The notes under the pieces were generated by a model, which ran no database searches, was not told the origin of the DNA, and saw nothing but the letters and a program-made list of their open reading frames with translations. The position numbers and the translations under genes are program-made. Below, piece by piece: positions 1 to 61,340 of a stretch of DNA of 64,000 bases (position 1 is its first letter; each line of letters begins with the position of its first letter). Location of the stretch: the NCBI RefSeq assembly GCF_003790525.1, contig NZ_CP033635.1; one strand, given 5' to 3'. The DNA is from Escherichia coli (lineage in GTDB: Bacteria > Pseudomonadota > Gammaproteobacteria > Enterobacterales > Enterobacteriaceae).

Positions 1-797
1 ACCGAAACTCCGTGGTGTAGTGCGTTTGTTGGTGCGGTGTTCCCTGCGCCAGCGGGGATAAACCGTTGGTATTAACGGGAATGTAGTCACTCCAGGAGTG
101 TTCCCTGCGCCAGCGGGGATAAACCGGCGATCGTATTTTCCGCTACGTCGCTCAAATGGTGTTCCCTGCGCCAGCGGGGATAAACCGTCGTTGATGGTGT
201 GATGAGTGTACAAAAAAAAGTGTTCCCTGCGCCAGCGGGGATAAACCGACGACTGAATCCGGCGAGGCTATCAACTGGCCGTGTTCCCTGCGCCAGCGGG
301 GATAAACCGCCGCACACGTCGAGCTGGTGGGGATTAATGCTGTGTTCCCTGCGCCAGCGGGGATAAACCGCAGTAAACGTTCGCGCGTTCTCGCGCTCAC
401 GAGTGTTCCCTGCGCCAGCGGGGATAAACCCTCTGTGTATTCGCTACCAGCCAGCACCGGTACGTGTTCCCTGCGCCAGCGGGGATAAACCGCAGGGTAA
501 CTGGCTGCTCCTCAACCATTCCGCGTGTTCCCCGCGCCAGCGGGGATAAACCGGGGTTTTAGCGACCGGACCAGAGTACGCAACAGTGTTCCCCGCGCCA
601 GCGGGGATAAACCGTTGCGCCTTAAGTTCCTTAACTTCCTCTGTATGTGTTCCCCGCGCCAGCGGGGATAAACCGGGAGTGATGAATTGGAAGTAACGGA
701 TAACCGCGTGTTCCCTGCGCCAGCGGGGATAAACCGGACGCACTGGATGCGATGATGGATATCACTTAGAGTTCCCCCCGCCCCTGCGGTAGAACTC
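1..797 (+). CRISPR. Type I-E CRISPR array, iap-proximal (distal) end; 13 repeats in window including a degenerate terminal repeat; truncated by window start
   Basis: 29-bp repeat GTGTTCCC(T/C)GCGCCAGCGGGGATAAACCG at a strict 61-bp period starting at 37,98,159,220,281,342,403,464,525,586,647,708; 32-bp unique spacers; degenerate repeat GAGTTCCCCCCGCCCCTGCGGTAGAACTC at 769-797; positions 1-36 are the end of a further repeat plus one spacer. Confidence 0.97.
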
Positions 798-819
798 CCA
801 GCTCCCATTTTCAAACCCA

Positions 820-1857
820 TCAAGACGCCTTCGCCAGCTCTTTCACCAGAGGTAGCATTATCCGCATAACGTCACGGCAGCGACGTTCTATTCTTCCAGG
901 AAGTGCCTTATCAATATGTTGTTGATTATCCAGTCTTACGTCATGCCAGCTATTTCCCGCAGGGAATGCAGCTGTTTTTGCGCGTTGCTGATAACCATCC
1001 TTATTTCCAAGATTCCAGTTGGTCGCCTCCACCGAAAGTACCGCAATACCGGCTTTGTCGAAAACTTCGGCGTCATTACAACAGCCAGTACCCTTCGGAT
1101 AATTTTTATTCAAACCCGGATTGGTCGTTGCGGCAATTCCATGACTACGCGCAATTGCCAGCGCCCTGTCGCGCGTTAATTTCCTTACTGCTTCAGGGGT
1201 TTTTACACCGCTGTTGAAATACAATTTATCGCCAACAATTAAGTTATCGAGATTAATCACCAGCAGTGTATTTTTCTTTTCGGAGTCACTCATCCGCTTG
1301 AGTAAATTCTCAGCGCCTAATTTCCCTTCCTCTTCGCCGCTGGTCGCCACAAATCGAATACCATACTCGGTAGGCGTATTTTTCAGGCGTTCTGCCAATT
1401 CCAGCATGACACCTAAACCTGCGGCGTTATCATCCATTCCTTGTAACGTCAGCCCGCCGAGATTGGCATCGGCGTCAGCATCGCTCAGCGGGGCGTAAGT
1501 ATCCAGATGCGCCATAATGATGATCTGCTGCGGCGCTTTGCCTTCATGAGCGGCAATCACCGTACTTCCCGTCACGTTATGCCAGCTCTTGCGATTATCG
1601 CGGGCGGTATAAATATACCGACTATTAAATGTCCGAATATCACTGCGATAACCCATTTGCTGAAACTGTTGGCGAATATAATCGGCAGATAACATTTCTG
1701 CTGGAGTTCCGGTCATGCGTCCCGGAAAGAAAGTAGCAATATGTCGTGCCTGGGTATTAGCAAAATCGCCAGGTTTAGGTGACGAGGCGTGTACGGGGAG
1801 AATAAAGCATACGCCGAGCGCCAGGGCAGCGGTACGGTGGCGCAATGCGGAAAACAT
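820..1857 (-). CDS. iap: Alkaline phosphatase isozyme conversion aminopeptidase
   Basis: 345-aa ORF, N-terminus MFSALRHRTAALALGVCFILPVHA with signal peptide; recognised as E. coli Iap; lies next to the CRISPR array as in E. coli. Confidence 0.93.
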   Translation of the reverse strand: MFSALRHRTAALALGVCFILPVHASSPKPGDFANTQARHIATFFPGRMTGTPAEMLSADYIRQQFQQMGYRSDIRTFNSRYIYTARDNRKSWHNVTGSTVIAAHEGKAPQQIIIMAHLDTYAPLSDADADANLGGLTLQGMDDNAAGLGVMLELAERLKNTPTEYGIRFVATSGEEEGKLGAENLLKRMSDSEKKNTLLVINLDNLIVGDKLYFNSGVKTPEAVRKLTRDRALAIARSHGIAATTNPGLNKNYPKGTGCCNDAEVFDKAGIAVLSVEATNWNLGNKDGYQQRAKTAAFPAGNSWHDVRLDNQQHIDKALPGRIERRCRDVMRIMLPLVKELAKAS

Positions 1858-2108: not shown

Positions 2109-3017
2109 ATGGATCAAATACGACTTACTCACCTGCGGCAACTGGAGGCGGAAAGCATCCACATTATTCGCGAGGTGGCGGCAGAATTCTCAAATCCGGT
2201 GATGCTCTACTCTATCGGTAAAGATTCCAGCGTCATGCTGCATCTGGCGCGCAAGGCGTTTTATCCAGGTACGCTGCCTTTCCCGTTGCTGCATGTCGAT
2301 ACCGGCTGGAAATTCCGCGAGATGTATGAGTTCCGCGATCGTACGGCGAAAGCCTACGGCTGCGAGCTGCTGGTGCATAAAAACCCGGAAGGCGTGGCGA
2401 TGGGGATTAATCCATTCGTACACGGCAGCGCGAAACATACCGATATTATGAAAACTGAAGGCCTGAAACAGGCGCTGAACAAATACGGTTTTGATGCCGC
2501 CTTCGGTGGTGCGCGCCGTGACGAAGAGAAATCCCGCGCTAAAGAGCGAATCTACTCTTTCCGTGACCGCTTCCATCGCTGGGATCCGAAAAATCAGCGC
2601 CCGGAGCTGTGGCACAACTACAACGGGCAAATTAACAAAGGCGAAAGCATCCGCGTCTTCCCGCTCTCTAACTGGACCGAGCAGGATATCTGGCAATACA
2701 TCTGGCTGGAAAATATCGACATTGTGCCGCTGTATCTCGCTGCGGAACGTCCGGTTCTGGAACGCGACGGTATGTTGATGATGATTGATGACAACCGTAT
2801 CGACCTGCAACCGGGCGAAGTGATTAAAAAACGGATGGTGCGTTTCCGTACGCTGGGCTGCTGGCCGCTGACCGGTGCGGTGGAGTCAAATGCACAAACA
2901 CTGCCGGAGATCATCGAAGAGATGCTGGTTTCCACCACCAGTGAACGTCAGGGCCGCGTGATTGACCGCGACCAGGCGGGGTCTATGGAGCTGAAAAAAC
3001 GTCAGGGGTATTTTTAA
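2109..3017 (+). CDS. cysD: Sulfate adenylyltransferase subunit 2
   Basis: 302-aa ORF, ATG at 2109, recognised CysD sequence; followed closely by cysN. Confidence 0.95.
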
Positions 3018-11998: not shown

Positions 11999-12439
11999 CT
12001 ATTTGCTCATCATCTTGCGCACCAGCTGCATAAACAGCTCCTGCTCTTCTGCACTCAAACGCCCCAAAAATTCCTCATCCACACTGTCACCAATCGGTAT
12101 CGCCGCAGCAAGTACCTTTTCTCCTTCGGCAGTCAGCCAGACAAAGCGTCGCCGCTTATCAGCAGAGTCATGTTCTCGTCTGACTAAGCCACGATTTTCC
12201 ATTCGTGCCAACATTTCTGCCAGCGTTGCTTTGGTGCTGACGGCTGCTTCTATCAGTGCCACCTGTTCGATACCAGGTTTATCAGCAATGGCGCGCATCA
12301 CCGCGTACTGTGGTTTGGTCAGATCAGGTAACTCGTGCTGCCAGCGAGCCGTGTGCTGCTGAAAAAGCTGTCGTAACTGATGGAACGCTTTATTTCGTAA
12401 CGCCATGTAAACTCCGGGCAAACTATCTGCCGCTATCAT
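11999..12439 (-). CDS. MarR/SlyA-family transcriptional regulator
   Basis: 146-aa ORF with winged-helix region typical of the MarR family; divergent from the decarboxylase operon. Confidence 0.85.
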   Translation of the reverse strand: MIAADSLPGVYMALRNKAFHQLRQLFQQHTARWQHELPDLTKPQYAVMRAIADKPGIEQVALIEAAVSTKATLAEMLARMENRGLVRREHDSADKRRRFVWLTAEGEKVLAAAIPIGDSVDEEFLGRLSAEEQELFMQLVRKMMSK

Positions 12440-12521
12440 AGCGGTTTTTCAGTGACGAAGAAGATGTTGTTACTTTTCAGCGCTTGCCGCGATGAAAACA
12501 GAGGCGTATTTTAATAATAAC

Positions 12522-12535
12522 GTTCGTATACGAAC
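12522..12535. promoter_or_regulatory. Perfect 14-bp palindrome GTTCGTATACGAAC, candidate operator for the adjacent MarR-family regulator
   Basis: Read directly; sits about 18 bp upstream of the ATG at 12553 inside the divergent intergenic region. Confidence 0.4.
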
Positions 12536-12552
12536 AATTTAGAGAGTAAGCA

Positions 12553-13146
12553 ATGAAACTGATCGTCGGGATGACAGGGGCTACCGGTGCGCCTCTTGGG
12601 GTGGCATTACTGCAAGCGCTGCGGGAGATGCCGAATGTCGAGACTCATCTGGTGATGTCGAAGTGGGCGAGAACCACCATTGAACTGGAAACGCCTTACA
12701 GCGCTCGCGATGTTGCTGCCCTCGCAGACTTCAGCCATAACCCGGCGGATCAGGCGGCGACCATCTCCTCAGGTTCCTTTCGTACCGACGGCATGATCGT
12801 TATTCCGTGCAGTATGAAAACGCTCGCCGGTATCCGTGCCGGTTACGCCGATGGCCTGGTGGGGCGCGCGGCGGACGTCGTGCTCAAAGAAGGCCGCAAA
12901 CTGGTGCTGGTGCCGCGTGAAATGCCGCTTAGCACAATCCATCTCGAAAATATGCTCGCACTTTCGCGCATGGGCGTGGCGATGGTGCCGCCGATGCCTG
13001 CCTTTTATAACCATCCCGAAACGGTAGATGACATTGTCCACCACGTGGTAGCCCGCGTGCTGGATCAATTTGGCCTCGAACATCCTCACGCCAGGCGCTG
13101 GCAAGGATTGCCGCAGGCCCGGAATTTTTCTCAGGAGAATGAATAA
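12553..13146 (+). CDS. UbiX/Pad1-family flavin prenyltransferase, B subunit of a non-oxidative hydroxyarylic acid decarboxylase system
   Basis: 197-aa ORF, N-terminus MKLIVGMTGATGA typical of the UbiX/PAD1 flavoprotein fold; translationally coupled (ATAATGG) to the UbiD-like gene; ecdB/kpdB/bsdB-type. Confidence 0.88.
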   Translation: MKLIVGMTGATGAPLGVALLQALREMPNVETHLVMSKWARTTIELETPYSARDVAALADFSHNPADQAATISSGSFRTDGMIVIPCSMKTLAGIRAGYADGLVGRAADVVLKEGRKLVLVPREMPLSTIHLENMLALSRMGVAMVPPMPAFYNHPETVDDIVHHVVARVLDQFGLEHPHARRWQGLPQARNFSQENE

Positions 13147-14573
13147 TGGCATTTGATGATTTACGCAGCTTTTTACAGGCGCTCGACGACCATGGGCAAT
13201 TGCTGAAAATCAGCGAAGAGGTGAACGCAGAACCGGATCTGGCAGCCGCAGCCAACGCCACCGGGCGTATCGGCGACGGCGCGCCCGCGCTGTGGTTTGA
13301 CAATATTCGCGGCTTTACCGATGCCCGCGTGGCGATGAACACCATCGGTTCCTGGCAGAACCACGCGATTTCCCTCGGCCTGCCGCCAAATACCCCGGTT
13401 AAAAAACAGATCGATGAGTTTATCCGCCGCTGGGACAACTTCCCGATAGCCCCGGAACGCCGAGCCAATCCAGCCTGGGCGCAGAACACCGTCGATGGCG
13501 AAAAGATTAACCTGTTCGATATCCTGCCGCTGTTTCGTTTAAACGACGGTGATGGCGGTTTCTATCTCGACAAAGCGTGCGTGGTTTCCCGCGATCCGCT
13601 CGACCCGGATAACTTCGGCAAGCAGAACGTCGGTATCTACCGCATGGAAGTGAAGGGCAAACGTAAGCTCGGCCTGCAACCGGTGCCGATGCACGATATC
13701 GCGCTGCATCTGCATAAAGCGGAAGAGCGCGGTGAAGATCTGCCGATTGCCATCACCCTCGGTAACGATCCGATCATCACCCTGATGGGGGCCACGCCGC
13801 TGAAATATGATCAGTCCGAGTACGAAATGGCGGGCGCGCTGCGCGAAAGTCCGTACCCGATTGCCACCGCCCCACTGACCGGTTTTGATGTACCCTGGGG
13901 CTCGGAAGTGATCCTCGAAGGGGTTATCGAAAGTCGTAAACGTGAAATCGAAGGGCCGTTCGGTGAGTTTACCGGGCACTACTCCGGCGGGCGCAACATG
14001 ACCGTGGTGCGCATCGATAACGTCTCTTATCGCAGCAAACCCATTTTTGAATCGCTCTATCTCGGGATGCCGTGGACGGAAATCGACTACCTGATGGGGC
14101 CAGCCACCTGCGTGCCGCTGTATCAGCAACTGAAAGCCGAGTTCCCGGAAGTGCAGGCGGTAAACGCCATGTACACCCACGGCCTGCTGGCGATTATCTC
14201 CACCAAAAAACGCTACGGTGGCTTTGCCCGCGCGGTGGGCCTCCGTGCGATGACCACGCCACACGGTCTGGGCTATGTGAAGATGGTGATTATGGTCGAT
14301 GAAGACGTTGATCCGTTCAACCTGCCGCAGGTGATGTGGGCGCTCTCTTCGAAAGTGAACCCGGCAGGGGATTTGGTGCAGTTGCCGAATATGTCCGTGC
14401 TGGAACTCGACCCTGGCTCAAGTCCGGCGGGGATCACCGACAAGCTGATTATCGACGCCACCACGCCTGTCGCCCCGGACAACCGTGGTCACTACAGTCA
14501 GCCGGTGGTGGATTTACCGGAAACCAAAGCCTGGGCTGAAAAACTGACCGCTATGCTGGCCGCACGTCAATAA
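13146..14573 (+). CDS. UbiD-family decarboxylase, C subunit of a hydroxyarylic acid decarboxylase
   Basis: 475-aa ORF of UbiD size and sequence character; in operon between UbiX-like and small-subunit genes; ecdC/kpdC/bsdC-type. Confidence 0.88.
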   Translation: MAFDDLRSFLQALDDHGQLLKISEEVNAEPDLAAAANATGRIGDGAPALWFDNIRGFTDARVAMNTIGSWQNHAISLGLPPNTPVKKQIDEFIRRWDNFPIAPERRANPAWAQNTVDGEKINLFDILPLFRLNDGDGGFYLDKACVVSRDPLDPDNFGKQNVGIYRMEVKGKRKLGLQPVPMHDIALHLHKAEERGEDLPIAITLGNDPIITLMGATPLKYDQSEYEMAGALRESPYPIATAPLTGFDVPWGSEVILEGVIESRKREIEGPFGEFTGHYSGGRNMTVVRIDNVSYRSKPIFESLYLGMPWTEIDYLMGPATCVPLYQQLKAEFPEVQAVNAMYTHGLLAIISTKKRYGGFARAVGLRAMTTPHGLGYVKMVIMVDEDVDPFNLPQVMWALSSKVNPAGDLVQLPNMSVLELDPGSSPAGITDKLIIDATTPVAPDNRGHYSQPVVDLPETKAWAEKLTAMLAARQ

Positions 14574-14583
14574 GGAGAACAAG

Positions 14584-14820
14584 ATGATTTGTCCACGTTG
14601 TGCTGATGAACAGATTGAAGTGATGGCGAAATCGCCGGTAAAAGATGTCTGGACGGTCTACCAGTGCCAGCATTGCCTCTATACCTGGCGCGATACCGAA
14701 CCGCTGCGCCGCACCAGCCGCGAACATTATCCCGAAGCGTTCCGCATGACGCAGAAAGATATTGATGACGCGCCGATGGTGCCGAGCATCCCGCCGCTGC
14801 TGGCGGAAGGTAAGTGTTAA
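14584..14820 (+). CDS. Small zinc-ribbon subunit (D) of the hydroxyarylic acid decarboxylase
   Basis: 78-aa ORF with CPRC...CQHC motif, 10 nt after the UbiD-like gene. Confidence 0.8.
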   Translation: MICPRCADEQIEVMAKSPVKDVWTVYQCQHCLYTWRDTEPLRRTSREHYPEAFRMTQKDIDDAPMVPSIPPLLAEGKC

Positions 14821-14821
14821 T

Positions 14822-14857
14822 AAAAAAGTGCCGGGTAGAGGCTTTGCTTTACCCGGC
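14822..14857. terminator. Bidirectional hairpin terminator between the convergent decarboxylase operon and pphB
   Basis: Hairpin GCCGGGTAGAGGCTTTGCTTTACCCGGC flanked by A-run on the + side (T-run on the - strand) and T-rich sequence on the other side. Confidence 0.6.
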
Positions 14858-14861
14858 CACG

Positions 14862-15518
14862 TTATTTAATTTTATAAAACGATAACCGTCTGCTTTCCGG
14901 CGAGCCGGTATCAATATAAACCTGATTGGCAAATGTCTGGATGTTATCAAACATCATATGTCCAAAGATAAAACAGTCGGCACCGTTTATTTCTTTTAAC
15001 TCTCCCTTGAATGATTTCTGCACGCGATCAACAGGCCAGAGTAATTCGCTTTCTGCTATTTCTTTACCAAACTGATATTCATCACCCGGATAATCCGCAT
15101 GTGCGATGACATATTTTATTCTGTCGTTAGTGATTTCAATAATATGTGGAAGATTATGAAAACGTAGCAACAGGTCTATTGCTTCTTTTTGTTCCGTATC
15201 ACTTAACTCAAAGAACCAGTCGCCACCGCTGGCAAGCCACATATTGCCATCGCCGGTCGCGAACGCATCCAACGCCATCGCTTCATGGTTGCCTTTAACC
15301 GATGTAAACCAGGGCTGGTTTAACAGGCGCAGCACGTTAAGACTCTCCGGCCCACGATCGATGTTATCGCCTACCGAAATAAGTAAGTCGGTTTCAGGGC
15401 AAAAAGAGAGTTGATGTAAGCGGGATTGTAATAATTGATAGTCACCATGAATATCACCAACGGCCCATATATGGCGATAGTGATGGACATTGATTTTTTG
15501 ATAGCGTGTAGATGGCAT
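14862..15518 (-). CDS. pphB: Serine/threonine protein phosphatase 2
   Basis: 218-aa ORF with metallophosphatase motifs GDIHGD, GDNIDRG, GNHE; recognised PphB. Confidence 0.92.
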   Translation of the reverse strand: MPSTRYQKINVHHYRHIWAVGDIHGDYQLLQSRLHQLSFCPETDLLISVGDNIDRGPESLNVLRLLNQPWFTSVKGNHEAMALDAFATGDGNMWLASGGDWFFELSDTEQKEAIDLLLRFHNLPHIIEITNDRIKYVIAHADYPGDEYQFGKEIAESELLWPVDRVQKSFKGELKEINGADCFIFGHMMFDNIQTFANQVYIDTGSPESRRLSFYKIK

Positions 15519-57766: not shown

Positions 57767-57859
57767 GGTGAGGTGGCCGAGAGGCTGAAGGCGCTCCCCT
57801 GCTAAGGGAGTATGCGGTCAAAAGCTGCATCCGGGGTTCGAATCCCCGCCTCACCGCCA
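57767..57859 (+). tRNA. serV: tRNA-Ser (anticodon GCU)
   Basis: 93-nt sequence GGTGAGGTGGCCGAGAGGCTGAAGGCGCTCCCCTGCTAAGGGAG...CGCCTCACCGCCA with long variable arm and encoded CCA. Confidence 0.95.
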
Positions 57860-57862
57860 TTT

Positions 57863-57939
57863 GCATCCGTAGCTCAGCTGGATAGAGTACTCGGCTACGA
57901 ACCGAGCGGTCGGAGGTTCGAATCCTCCCGGATGCACCA
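57863..57939 (+). tRNA. tRNA-Arg (anticodon ACG), copy 1
   Basis: 77-nt GCATCCGTAGCTCAGCTGGATAGAGTACTCGGCTACGAACCGAGCGGTCGGAGGTTCGAATCCTCCCGGATGCACCA. Confidence 0.95.
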
Positions 57940-58003
57940 TCTCTTACTTGATACGGCTTTAGTAGCGGTATCAAAAAATCTGCAGTAAAGTAAGTTTCCC
58001 GAT

Positions 58004-58080
58004 GCATCCGTAGCTCAGCTGGATAGAGTACTCGGCTACGAACCGAGCGGTCGGAGGTTCGAATCCTCCCGGATGCACCA
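58004..58080 (+). tRNA. tRNA-Arg (anticodon ACG), copy 2
   Basis: Identical 77-nt sequence. Confidence 0.95.
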
Positions 58081-58142
58081 TCTCTTACTTGATATAGCTT
58101 TAGTGGCGGTATCAATATCAGCAGTAAAATAAATTTCCCGAT

Positions 58143-58219
58143 GCATCCGTAGCTCAGCTGGATAGAGTACTCGGCTACGAACCGAGCGGTCGGAGGTTCG
58201 AATCCTCCCGGATGCACCA
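58143..58219 (+). tRNA. tRNA-Arg (anticodon ACG), copy 3
   Basis: Identical 77-nt sequence. Confidence 0.95.
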
Positions 58220-58282
58220 TCTCTTACTTGATATGGCTTTAGTAGCGGTATCAATATCAGCAATAAAATAAATTTTCCCGAT

Positions 58283-58359
58283 GCATCCGTAGCTCAGCTG
58301 GATAGAGTACTCGGCTACGAACCGAGCGGTCGGAGGTTCGAATCCTCCCGGATGCACCA
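58283..58359 (+). tRNA. tRNA-Arg (anticodon ACG), copy 4
   Basis: Identical 77-nt sequence. Confidence 0.95.
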
Positions 58360-61264: not shown

Positions 61265-61340
61265 AAGAAAAAGGCCACTCGTGAGTGGCCAAAATTTCAT
61301 CTCTGAATTCAGGGATGATGATAACAAATGCGCGTCTTTC
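61265..61340 (-). ncRNA. micA: Small regulatory RNA MicA (SraD)
   Basis: Minus-strand reading GAAAGACGCGCATTTGTTATCATCATCCCTGAATTCAGAGATGAAATTTTGGCCACTCACGAGTGGCCTTTTT matches MicA including its terminator hairpin; divergent from luxS. Confidence 0.92.

Follow-up and report, generated by a model that had tools for sequence, protein, structure and literature searches.

The left end of the window, by which we mean the whole 64,000-nucleotide stretch of E. coli DNA that was analysed, carries the leader-distal part of a type I-E CRISPR array that runs on the plus strand towards the convergent gene iap. The features to which the text refers are listed below. Repeats are numbered as they occur in the window and spacers as they occur in the full array counted from the leader, and C9 and T9 denote the base found at position 9 of a repeat.

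1-798, plus strand: iap-side type I-E array (CRISPR2.1), leader-distal part, comprising 12 full repeats with 13 spacers, preceded by one repeat tail and followed by the degenerate terminal repeat; identical in E. coli SMS-3-5 (NC_010498.1), where it is annotated as CRISPR
1-4, plus strand: ACCG, the 4 nt with which the tenth of the 22 repeats in the full array ends (L001 15976-16004)
37-492, plus strand: eight T9 repeats in succession (GTGTTCCCTGCG...) and spacers 11-17, the end of a run of 18 such repeats that starts at the leader
310-341, plus strand: spacer 15, with a 32/32 match to the 5' end of a putative phage holin gene
403-463, plus strand: repeat 7 (C at base 431) and spacer 17 (432-463)
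525-707, plus strand: three canonical C9 repeats (525-553, 586-614, 647-675) with spacers 19-21, the older part of the array
708-736, plus strand: last full repeat, T9
737-768, plus strand: oldest "anchor" spacer, common to K-12 and O157:H7
769-798, plus strand: degenerate terminal repeat GAGTTCCCCCCGCCCCTGCGGTAGAACTCC, 30 nt
820-1857, minus strand: iap, alkaline phosphatase isozyme conversion aminopeptidase, the convergent flank which defines the CRISPR2.1 locus
2109-3017, plus strand: cysD

The 12 full 29-nt repeats begin on the plus strand at positions 37, 98, 159, 220, 281, 342, 403, 464, 525, 586, 647 and 708, which gives a period of exactly 61 nt with 32-nt spacers, and no further copy of the repeat was found on the minus strand or elsewhere within the 64 kb. 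A 61-nt-periodic run of 12 near-identical 29-mers is far beyond chance. Nine of the 12 (repeats 1-8 and 12) correspond to GTGTTCCCTGCGCCAGCGGGGATAAACCG, with T at position 9, and repeats 9-11 to GTGTTCCCCGCG..., with C at this position. The final base of repeat 7 (403-431) is C, and all 12 repeats differ from GWGTTCCCCGCGCCAGCGGGGATAAACCG by 0-2 bases. Each repeat comprises a 28-nt duplicon and one spacer-derived base (29 nt in all), and the 22 spacers of the full SMS-3-5 array are without exception 32 nt in length, or 33 nt when the last repeat base is counted with the spacer.

The original prediction, made from the DNA letters, had described this region as a type I-E array with a degenerate repeat at the iap side. 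The 29-nt repeats, the 61-nt period and the I-E cas operon upstream of the array in an identical genome bear out the assignment, and the degenerate repeat was found at 769-798 with iap beyond it at 820-1857 on the minus strand. Listing of the repeats likewise reproduced the C-to-T change at position 9 in nine of the 12, the C at the end of repeat 7 and the C9 form of the GTG consensus in repeats 9-11 (525-553, 586-614 and 647-675). The number of repeats stood at 12 as given, but the spacers number 13 rather than 12, and the window opens inside a repeat.

The degenerate terminal repeat, located between the array and iap, contains one C more than the K-12 copy and was predicted by folding to form a strong hairpin of its own (GAGTTC...GAACTC, -12.5 kcal/mol, z = -5.1). 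Most of its sequence is conserved in K-12 and O157:H7; in O157 both arms of the hairpin contain substitutions. Neither a gathering-threshold Rfam scan of the whole window nor an E-value scan of positions 1-900 returned a CRISPR repeat family, and only chance hits were obtained.

Elsewhere in the window the rpoS-mutS interval (11999-15518), which we take to be a known polymorphic region of E. coli, contains a MarR-family regulator, hydroxyarylic acid decarboxylase subunits B, C and D, and pphB. Downstream of csrA there is a tandem tRNA cluster of one Ser followed by four identical Arg tRNAs (57767-58356), and the MicA sRNA is found beside luxS (61269-61340). The remainder is ordinary core genome, from cysDNC to emrAB.

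Leader, cas operon and I-E variant

The first 800 bases of the window were 100% identical in seven complete E. coli genomes including SMS-3-5 (NC_010498.1), and its first 16.8 kb matched SMS-3-5 exactly. The leader and cas genes, which lie outside the window, were taken from this 100% identical public genome. The CRISPR2.1 array of SMS-3-5 contains 22 full repeats (L001 15427-16736); its older part nearest to iap, which amounts to 60% of it, falls in the window, and each of the ten repeats beyond the left edge of the window is T9. A 96-nt AT-rich leader (28% GC) is found directly upstream of the array, and upstream of it the operon cas3-cse1-cse2-cas7-cas5-cas6e-cas1-cas2 is unbroken with no pseudogene flags. 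A promoter match in the leader was at chance level (1 found vs 1.0 expected). Seven of the eight Cas proteins (Cascade and adaptation) scored above the curated type I-E NCBIfam cut-offs (for example Cse1, 605 vs 70 bits; Cas6e, 283 vs 45; Cas1e, 380 vs 216), while Cas3 passed the core-helicase and HD-domain models and failed the full-length Cas3 model (423 bits vs a cut-off of 569). In nine other genomes of the lineage the protein accessions of Cas6e, Cas1, Cas2 and Iap were all the same as those of SMS-3-5. A CDS of the Hok/Gef family is located between cysH and cas3 (L001 6422-6574).

Apart from the full-length Cas3 model, the array has the adjacent AT-rich leader and full cas operon of a type I-E system, both off-window in the identical genome. 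The leader, the newest spacers and any cas operon had been placed beyond position 1, and ten newer repeats, a leader and eight cas genes were indeed found there in SMS-3-5. An orphan or decaying array lacking functional cas genes, of the kind seen in BL21 and in many B2 strains, would agree with the window itself, which has neither cas gene nor leader, and with the ten aligned complete-genome arrays of the lineage, which differ by spacer losses and one duplication or conversion only. However, the cas operon of the identical genome is full and unflagged, its products score as type I-E or Cas3-family proteins, every member of the lineage examined carries the same Cas proteins, and the leader-end spacers differ between two branches. 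Since SMS-3-5 has an intact leader and cas operon the array is not to be classed as an orphan, and we consider a relic extremely improbable.

From the established I-E pathway, the array would be transcribed rightwards from the leader. Cas6e would bind the 7-bp hairpin of each repeat and cut at its 3' base to give a crRNA of 61 nt, composed of an 8-nt AUAAACCG 5' handle, the 32-nt spacer and a 21-nt hairpin 3' handle, and Cascade with Cas3 would then destroy DNA in which a matching protospacer lies beside an AWG PAM. Both crRNA production and Cascade/Cas3 interference in SMS-3-5 are predicted on this basis. The I-E system of K-12 is silenced by H-NS.

In the published scheme "CRISPR-A" (GTG) repeats pair with leader-A and the cas-EO genes, and "CRISPR-T" (GAG) repeats with leader-T and cas-EK (PMC3737337, Diez-Villasenor et al. 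2013). The two gene sets were renamed E1 and E2, with E1 described as "the more prevalent" and the K-12 set as "a minor variant"; hok/sok was found in all strains but those with E2, and the cas-E modules were reported to be exchanged horizontally (PMC3903273, Almendros et al. 2014). Read in the direction of transcription, all 22 SMS-3-5 repeats have T at position 2, as in CRISPR-A, for which the publication gives A because it writes the repeat in reverse. An O157-type leader and O157-type cas genes are accompanied by a hok/sok-type gene between cysH and cas3, as in cas-EO/I-E1. The leftward extension which had been proposed as a check on the leader and cas operon thus found both intact in SMS-3-5, and the subtype is cas-EO, or I-E1.

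The likeness to O157:H7 extends to the cas2-leader-array-iap locus, the GTG repeat, AAG/ATG PAMs and hok/gef upstream of cas3, and the anchor spacer (one difference) and degenerate terminal repeat are common to both. In comparison with O157:H7 (strain Z885), Cas6e was 96% identical, with 9 of 216 residues differing between the lineage and O157 proteins; the cas3-cas6e DNA was about 94% identical and the leader agreed at 89 of 96 bases. What distinguishes SMS-3-5 from O157:H7-type CRISPR-A arrays is the C9-to-T change in 19 of its 22 repeats and a spacer content which, other than the anchor, is lineage-specific save for spacers 7, 12 and 15, which recur or have near-copies elsewhere.

CRISPR I of K-12 (cas-EK/I-E2) has the same chromosomal position, repeat length, hairpin and 61-nt period, and shares the oldest spacer (two differences), the terminal repeat and a Cas1 which is 85% identical. 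In contrast, repeat position 2 is A in K-12 and T in SMS-3-5, the Cascade and Cas3 proteins are only 21-29% identical (Cas6e 26%, Cse1 21%, Cas3 29%), and about a third of the leader bases differ, the invariant columns amounting to 64 of 96 (about two thirds) once K-12 joins SMS-3-5 and O157:H7. The published acquisition motif is AWG for the SMS-type (cas-EO) system and AAG only for K-12. Upstream of cas3, hok/gef is present in SMS-3-5 and O157:H7 whereas K-12 has sokX only, which fits arrangement A (PMC3903273). The C9 form GTGTTCCCCGCGCCAGCGGGGATAAACCG is in addition the repeat quoted for CRISPR1 and CRISPR2 of Salmonella enterica in many Salmonella typing papers, a likeness by quoted repeat alone to another species with other flanking genes.

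Counted with a 5' extension of the repeat, as a 28-mer seed with trailing G can skip position 2, the GTG C9 repeat occurred in 4232 of 5426 complete E. coli genomes and totalled at least 49,671 copies. The same repeat also serves the second array (queE-ygcE) of other strains. An SMS-type cas set, scored by the cas3-cas6e block, was found in 2420-2788 of the 5426 genomes, the figure of 2420 referring to at least 80% coverage of the block, and in 69 genomes the cas3-cas6e region was at least 99% identical in DNA sequence to the SMS-type. The GTG repeat is the commonest E. coli repeat and the GAG form of K-12 is in the minority. The statement that the repeat is not the K-12 form was therefore correct, but the proposal of a variant type failed for the C9 form, which by the genome counts (4232 of 5426) and by PMC3737337 is the ordinary repeat, the very outcome that the original prediction had named as removing this point; only T9 is rare. 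The array is a member of the known E. coli CRISPR2.1/I-E1 (cas-EO) system, and as such is known and ordinary. The locus is already annotated as CRISPR in RefSeq, and the combination of GTG repeat, leader-A and cas-EO was described in 2010-2014. These counts correct the common assumption that the K-12 GAG repeat is the norm for E. coli.

Distribution and folding of the T9 repeat

An exact T9 29-mer was found in 29 of the 5426 complete E. coli genomes, 24 with 10-20 copies and five with a single copy. The 24 genomes with runs all belonged to the SMS-3-5 lineage, and the five singletons were internal repeats (4th, 4th, 4th, 13th and 20th) of the other array. When 100,044 species, represented by one genome each, were searched for exact matches, T9 was seen as two singletons (Mixta theicola and Pectobacterium aroidearum), and metagenome contigs contained ten singletons and no runs. 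The C-to-T change at position 9 recurs sporadically and forms runs only in the SMS-3-5 lineage, for which the run is a clean marker.

These searches bear on an import of the array from a species in which T9 is the standard repeat. Although horizontal exchange of cas-E modules is known (PMC3903273), T9 occurred only as single copies among the 100,044 species and as singletons in metagenomes, and the oldest spacer, the terminal repeat and the flanks of the array are all typical of E. coli. We give this origin next to no credence.

Folding of the repeat variants placed position 9 in a pair with G18 within a 7-bp stem closed by a GCCA loop. The T9 repeat folded to the same structure with a G-U pair at 9-18 and a centroid energy of -12.9 kcal/mol vs -15.1 kcal/mol for C9, a loss of 2.2 kcal/mol. 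The 7-bp stem and tetraloop which form the Cas6e handle, as in type I-E, were the same for the T9, C9 and GAG forms. It had been claimed that the C-to-T change turns a G-C pair of the stem into G-U, and the folds agree, with a wobble at 9-18 and retention of the hairpin. Position 9 also falls inside IR1 "CCCCGCG", which in K-12 is a molecular-ruler anchor needed for adaptation (Goren et al., PMC5039180).

Inheritance of the T9 run and of the terminal C

Along the full array from leader to iap, position 9 is T in 18 consecutive repeats, C in the next three and T in the last. New spacers would enter at the leader end via Cas1-Cas2 with duplication of the first repeat, and the C-to-T change at position 9 would have arisen in the first repeat of that time. 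T9 would have passed to all later repeats, which would account for the unbroken series of 18 next to the leader and for C9 in the older part. As the first repeat is copied at each integration, a mutation there marks the repeats that follow, hence a polar run. We hold it to be very probable that the window contains the old part of a majority-variant I-E array in which T9 was inherited from a mutated first repeat and the C at position 29 of repeat 7 goes with spacer 17.

The sister assembly GCA_050164035.1 (L030; 4966-5540) agrees with SMS-3-5 in its leader and in spacers 12, 13 and 22, but the six spacers at its leader end are different, and each of them is flanked by T9 repeats. Two branches have thus gained spacers independently while their first repeat was T9. 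The comparison gives about 17 such acquisitions in one branch and 6 in the other, or at least about 23 integrations. All of the integrations on T9 have 29-nt repeats and 32-nt spacers, and this natural record suggests that the substitution is tolerated by adaptation. In this way the T9 run provides field evidence that in the majority I-E variant, which has been studied less, spacers can be integrated repeatedly and at accurate length in spite of a point change in the stem and IR1. Among the ten aligned lineage arrays from complete genomes the leaders were identical and all but M172-1, which has lost spacers 1-7, had spacer 1; otherwise the arrays differed by internal deletions and by one duplication or conversion in SBF22. 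Since the arrays with a leader end in this set all share spacer 1, there has been no recent acquisition in that subset.

In SBF22 (L004, units 17-19, compared with window 403-553) a spacer-17 unit stands where spacer 18 would be, and the repeat after it is T9 instead of C9. This is a duplication-deletion or a gene conversion between repeat-spacer units. The last full repeat (708-736) is T9 despite the three C9 repeats which precede it, and simple first-repeat inheritance does not account for the T there. At the same position K-12 and O157:H7 have GTGTTCCCCGCATCAGCGGGG..., and the SMS-3-5 copy is without their CATCAG changes; it has the appearance of an unaltered T9 copy and not of an old repeat that has mutated. 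Short-patch conversion from a neighbouring T9 repeat would be the most economical idea, and SBF22 shows that units do recombine. Spacers 19-21 occur only in 23 genomes of the SMS-3-5 lineage, and therefore an outgroup cannot decide the origin of T9 in the last repeat.

The same two observations could be extended to the run as a whole, which would then have arisen by concerted evolution (gene conversion or unequal recombination) instead of serial copying: the spacer-17 unit of SBF22 overwrote spacer 18 with conversion of the following repeat from C9 to T9, and the last full repeat, free of CATCAG, is as if overwritten by a T9 copy. Homogenisation, however, predicts no polarity, and the 18 contiguous T9 repeats are strictly leader-side with a sharp boundary. 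Moreover, the six different new spacers of the sister assembly all come with T9, and the T9 singletons of other genomes never spread. Concerted evolution is on these grounds an unlikely source of the run, and serial copying from a mutated first repeat is preferred.

The C at base 431 co-segregated with spacer 17 across the 10 arrays, being missing from all four strains which lack spacer 17 and doubled along with spacer 17 in SBF22. The last base of the repeat is known to enter together with the spacer (PMC3737337), and because of this the terminal C is best read as base 1 of a 33-nt spacer-17 unit and not as a repeat mutation. This C would go back either to a PAM in which the base at -1 was not G or to a point change at a later time. 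The linkage of C and spacer 17 would be equally expected for a plain mutation of the last repeat base, and the C may have its origin in the PAM. No protospacer for spacer 17 was found in an exact 22-24-mer scan of IMG/VR. The earlier observation that repeat 7 ends in C is accurate as to the base, which was here assigned to the spacer-17 unit and is not counted as a change in the repeat.

An adaptive role for T9 was also weighed, in which the G-U pair would alter Cas6e binding, crRNA turnover or the fidelity of integration, possibly together with Cas6e substitutions of the lineage. The nine of 216 Cas6e residues by which the lineage departs from O157 are in line with such a role, as is the finding that, among the 25 longest contigs read, the exact lineage Cas6e occurred only with T9 arrays, and as is the position of base 9 within the IR1 ruler anchor (PMC5039180). 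Neutral hitch-hiking from the first repeat, however, fully accounts for the pattern, the cas3-cas6e region is at least 99% identical in 69 genomes of which T9 runs are seen in only 24, and the lengths of spacers and repeats are unchanged. Selection on T9 is accordingly very unlikely in our estimation, and we retain neutral inheritance from the first repeat. The new findings are small. A rare repeat SNP is confined to one lineage and shows a clear pattern of inheritance, there is evidence that spacers were acquired independently in two branches, and a few protospacers were identified.

Spacer targets and PAMs

Comparison of the whole array with phage and plasmid collections returned mostly other CRISPR arrays, some of which were misfiled as phage or plasmid records. 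Two candidate protospacers were discarded, one in a Stenotrophomonas phage (E = 2e-4) where the alignment runs from spacer 8 into the repeat, and one in Pectobacterium phage ZF40 (28/31, E = 0.4) which was too weak. Spacers 7 and 12 were also found in arrays of unrelated strains, in which near-copies of spacer 15 with about 92-94% identity occurred as well. Spacer 15 had no credible match in the phage or plasmid collections, and exact 22-24-mer scans of IMG/VR yielded nothing for spacers 19 and 21.

Of the off-window spacers, spacer 4 matched gpI, a tail gene found in P2-like phages and prophages (28/32), with an AAG PAM, and spacer 5 matched the same strand of gpI 9 nt downstream of the spacer 4 site (27/32), with ATA in the diverged phage copy (spacers 4 and 5, L001 15639-15731; gpI sites, L013 3001-3073). 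Such neighbouring same-strand sites are reminiscent of primed acquisition in a natural isolate. Spacer 9, also off-window, had a 32/32 match with an ATG PAM in a lambdoid prophage region of strain JX2.

A 32/32 match to spacer 15 was obtained in a 41-kb IMG/VR contig (UViG_2529293142_000021; L022 6549-6580), where the protospacer follows straight after an ATG start codon, which is itself the PAM. The gene concerned has a weak match to the holin/anti-holin family phrog_126 (E = 2.7e-6) and is a putative holin. It is located in a lysis-terminase cassette with an ORF matching tail lysozymes and endolysins, a short ORF which has a signal sequence like that of lipoproteins and may encode a spanin, and the genes terS and terL. 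The protospacers of spacers 4, 9 and 15 all have a 5'-AWG PAM, the G being aligned with the last repeat base. For cas-EO the motif CWT (= AWG) has been shown experimentally, and CAT (= ATG) is the commonest natural PAM (PMC3737337). The PAMs of the three spacers fit this AWG motif, and the identified protospacers lend it natural support in the majority I-E variant.

The spacer 15 site was found to be targeted, with a 2-nt offset, by spacer 1 of the orphan I-F array (clpA-infA) of strain 536 (L015 4001-4032). The two spacers overlap as CCGCACACG...GCT for spacer 15 and GCACACG...GCTGG for strain 536 spacer 1 (target region L022 6546-6581), so that at the putative holin site the ATG serves as I-E PAM and the CC that follows as I-F PAM. 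The coincidence of the two spacers on one site hints that both E. coli CRISPR types may have acted on a single phage family over a long time. Independently of this, T9 might be regarded as a natural experiment, a single-base change in IR1 and in the Cas6e hairpin which may subtly change crRNA processing or integration. We put both readings forward as speculative and rather doubtful.

A possible action of spacer 15 against the I-F cas genes was rejected, there being no match within 3 mismatches across the I-F locus of LF82. Spacer 2 of the strain 536 I-F array (L015 4061-4092), by comparison, hit cas3f of LF82 with one mismatch (L018 9789-9820). The latter match reproduces the published phenomenon of "anti-cas" spacers.
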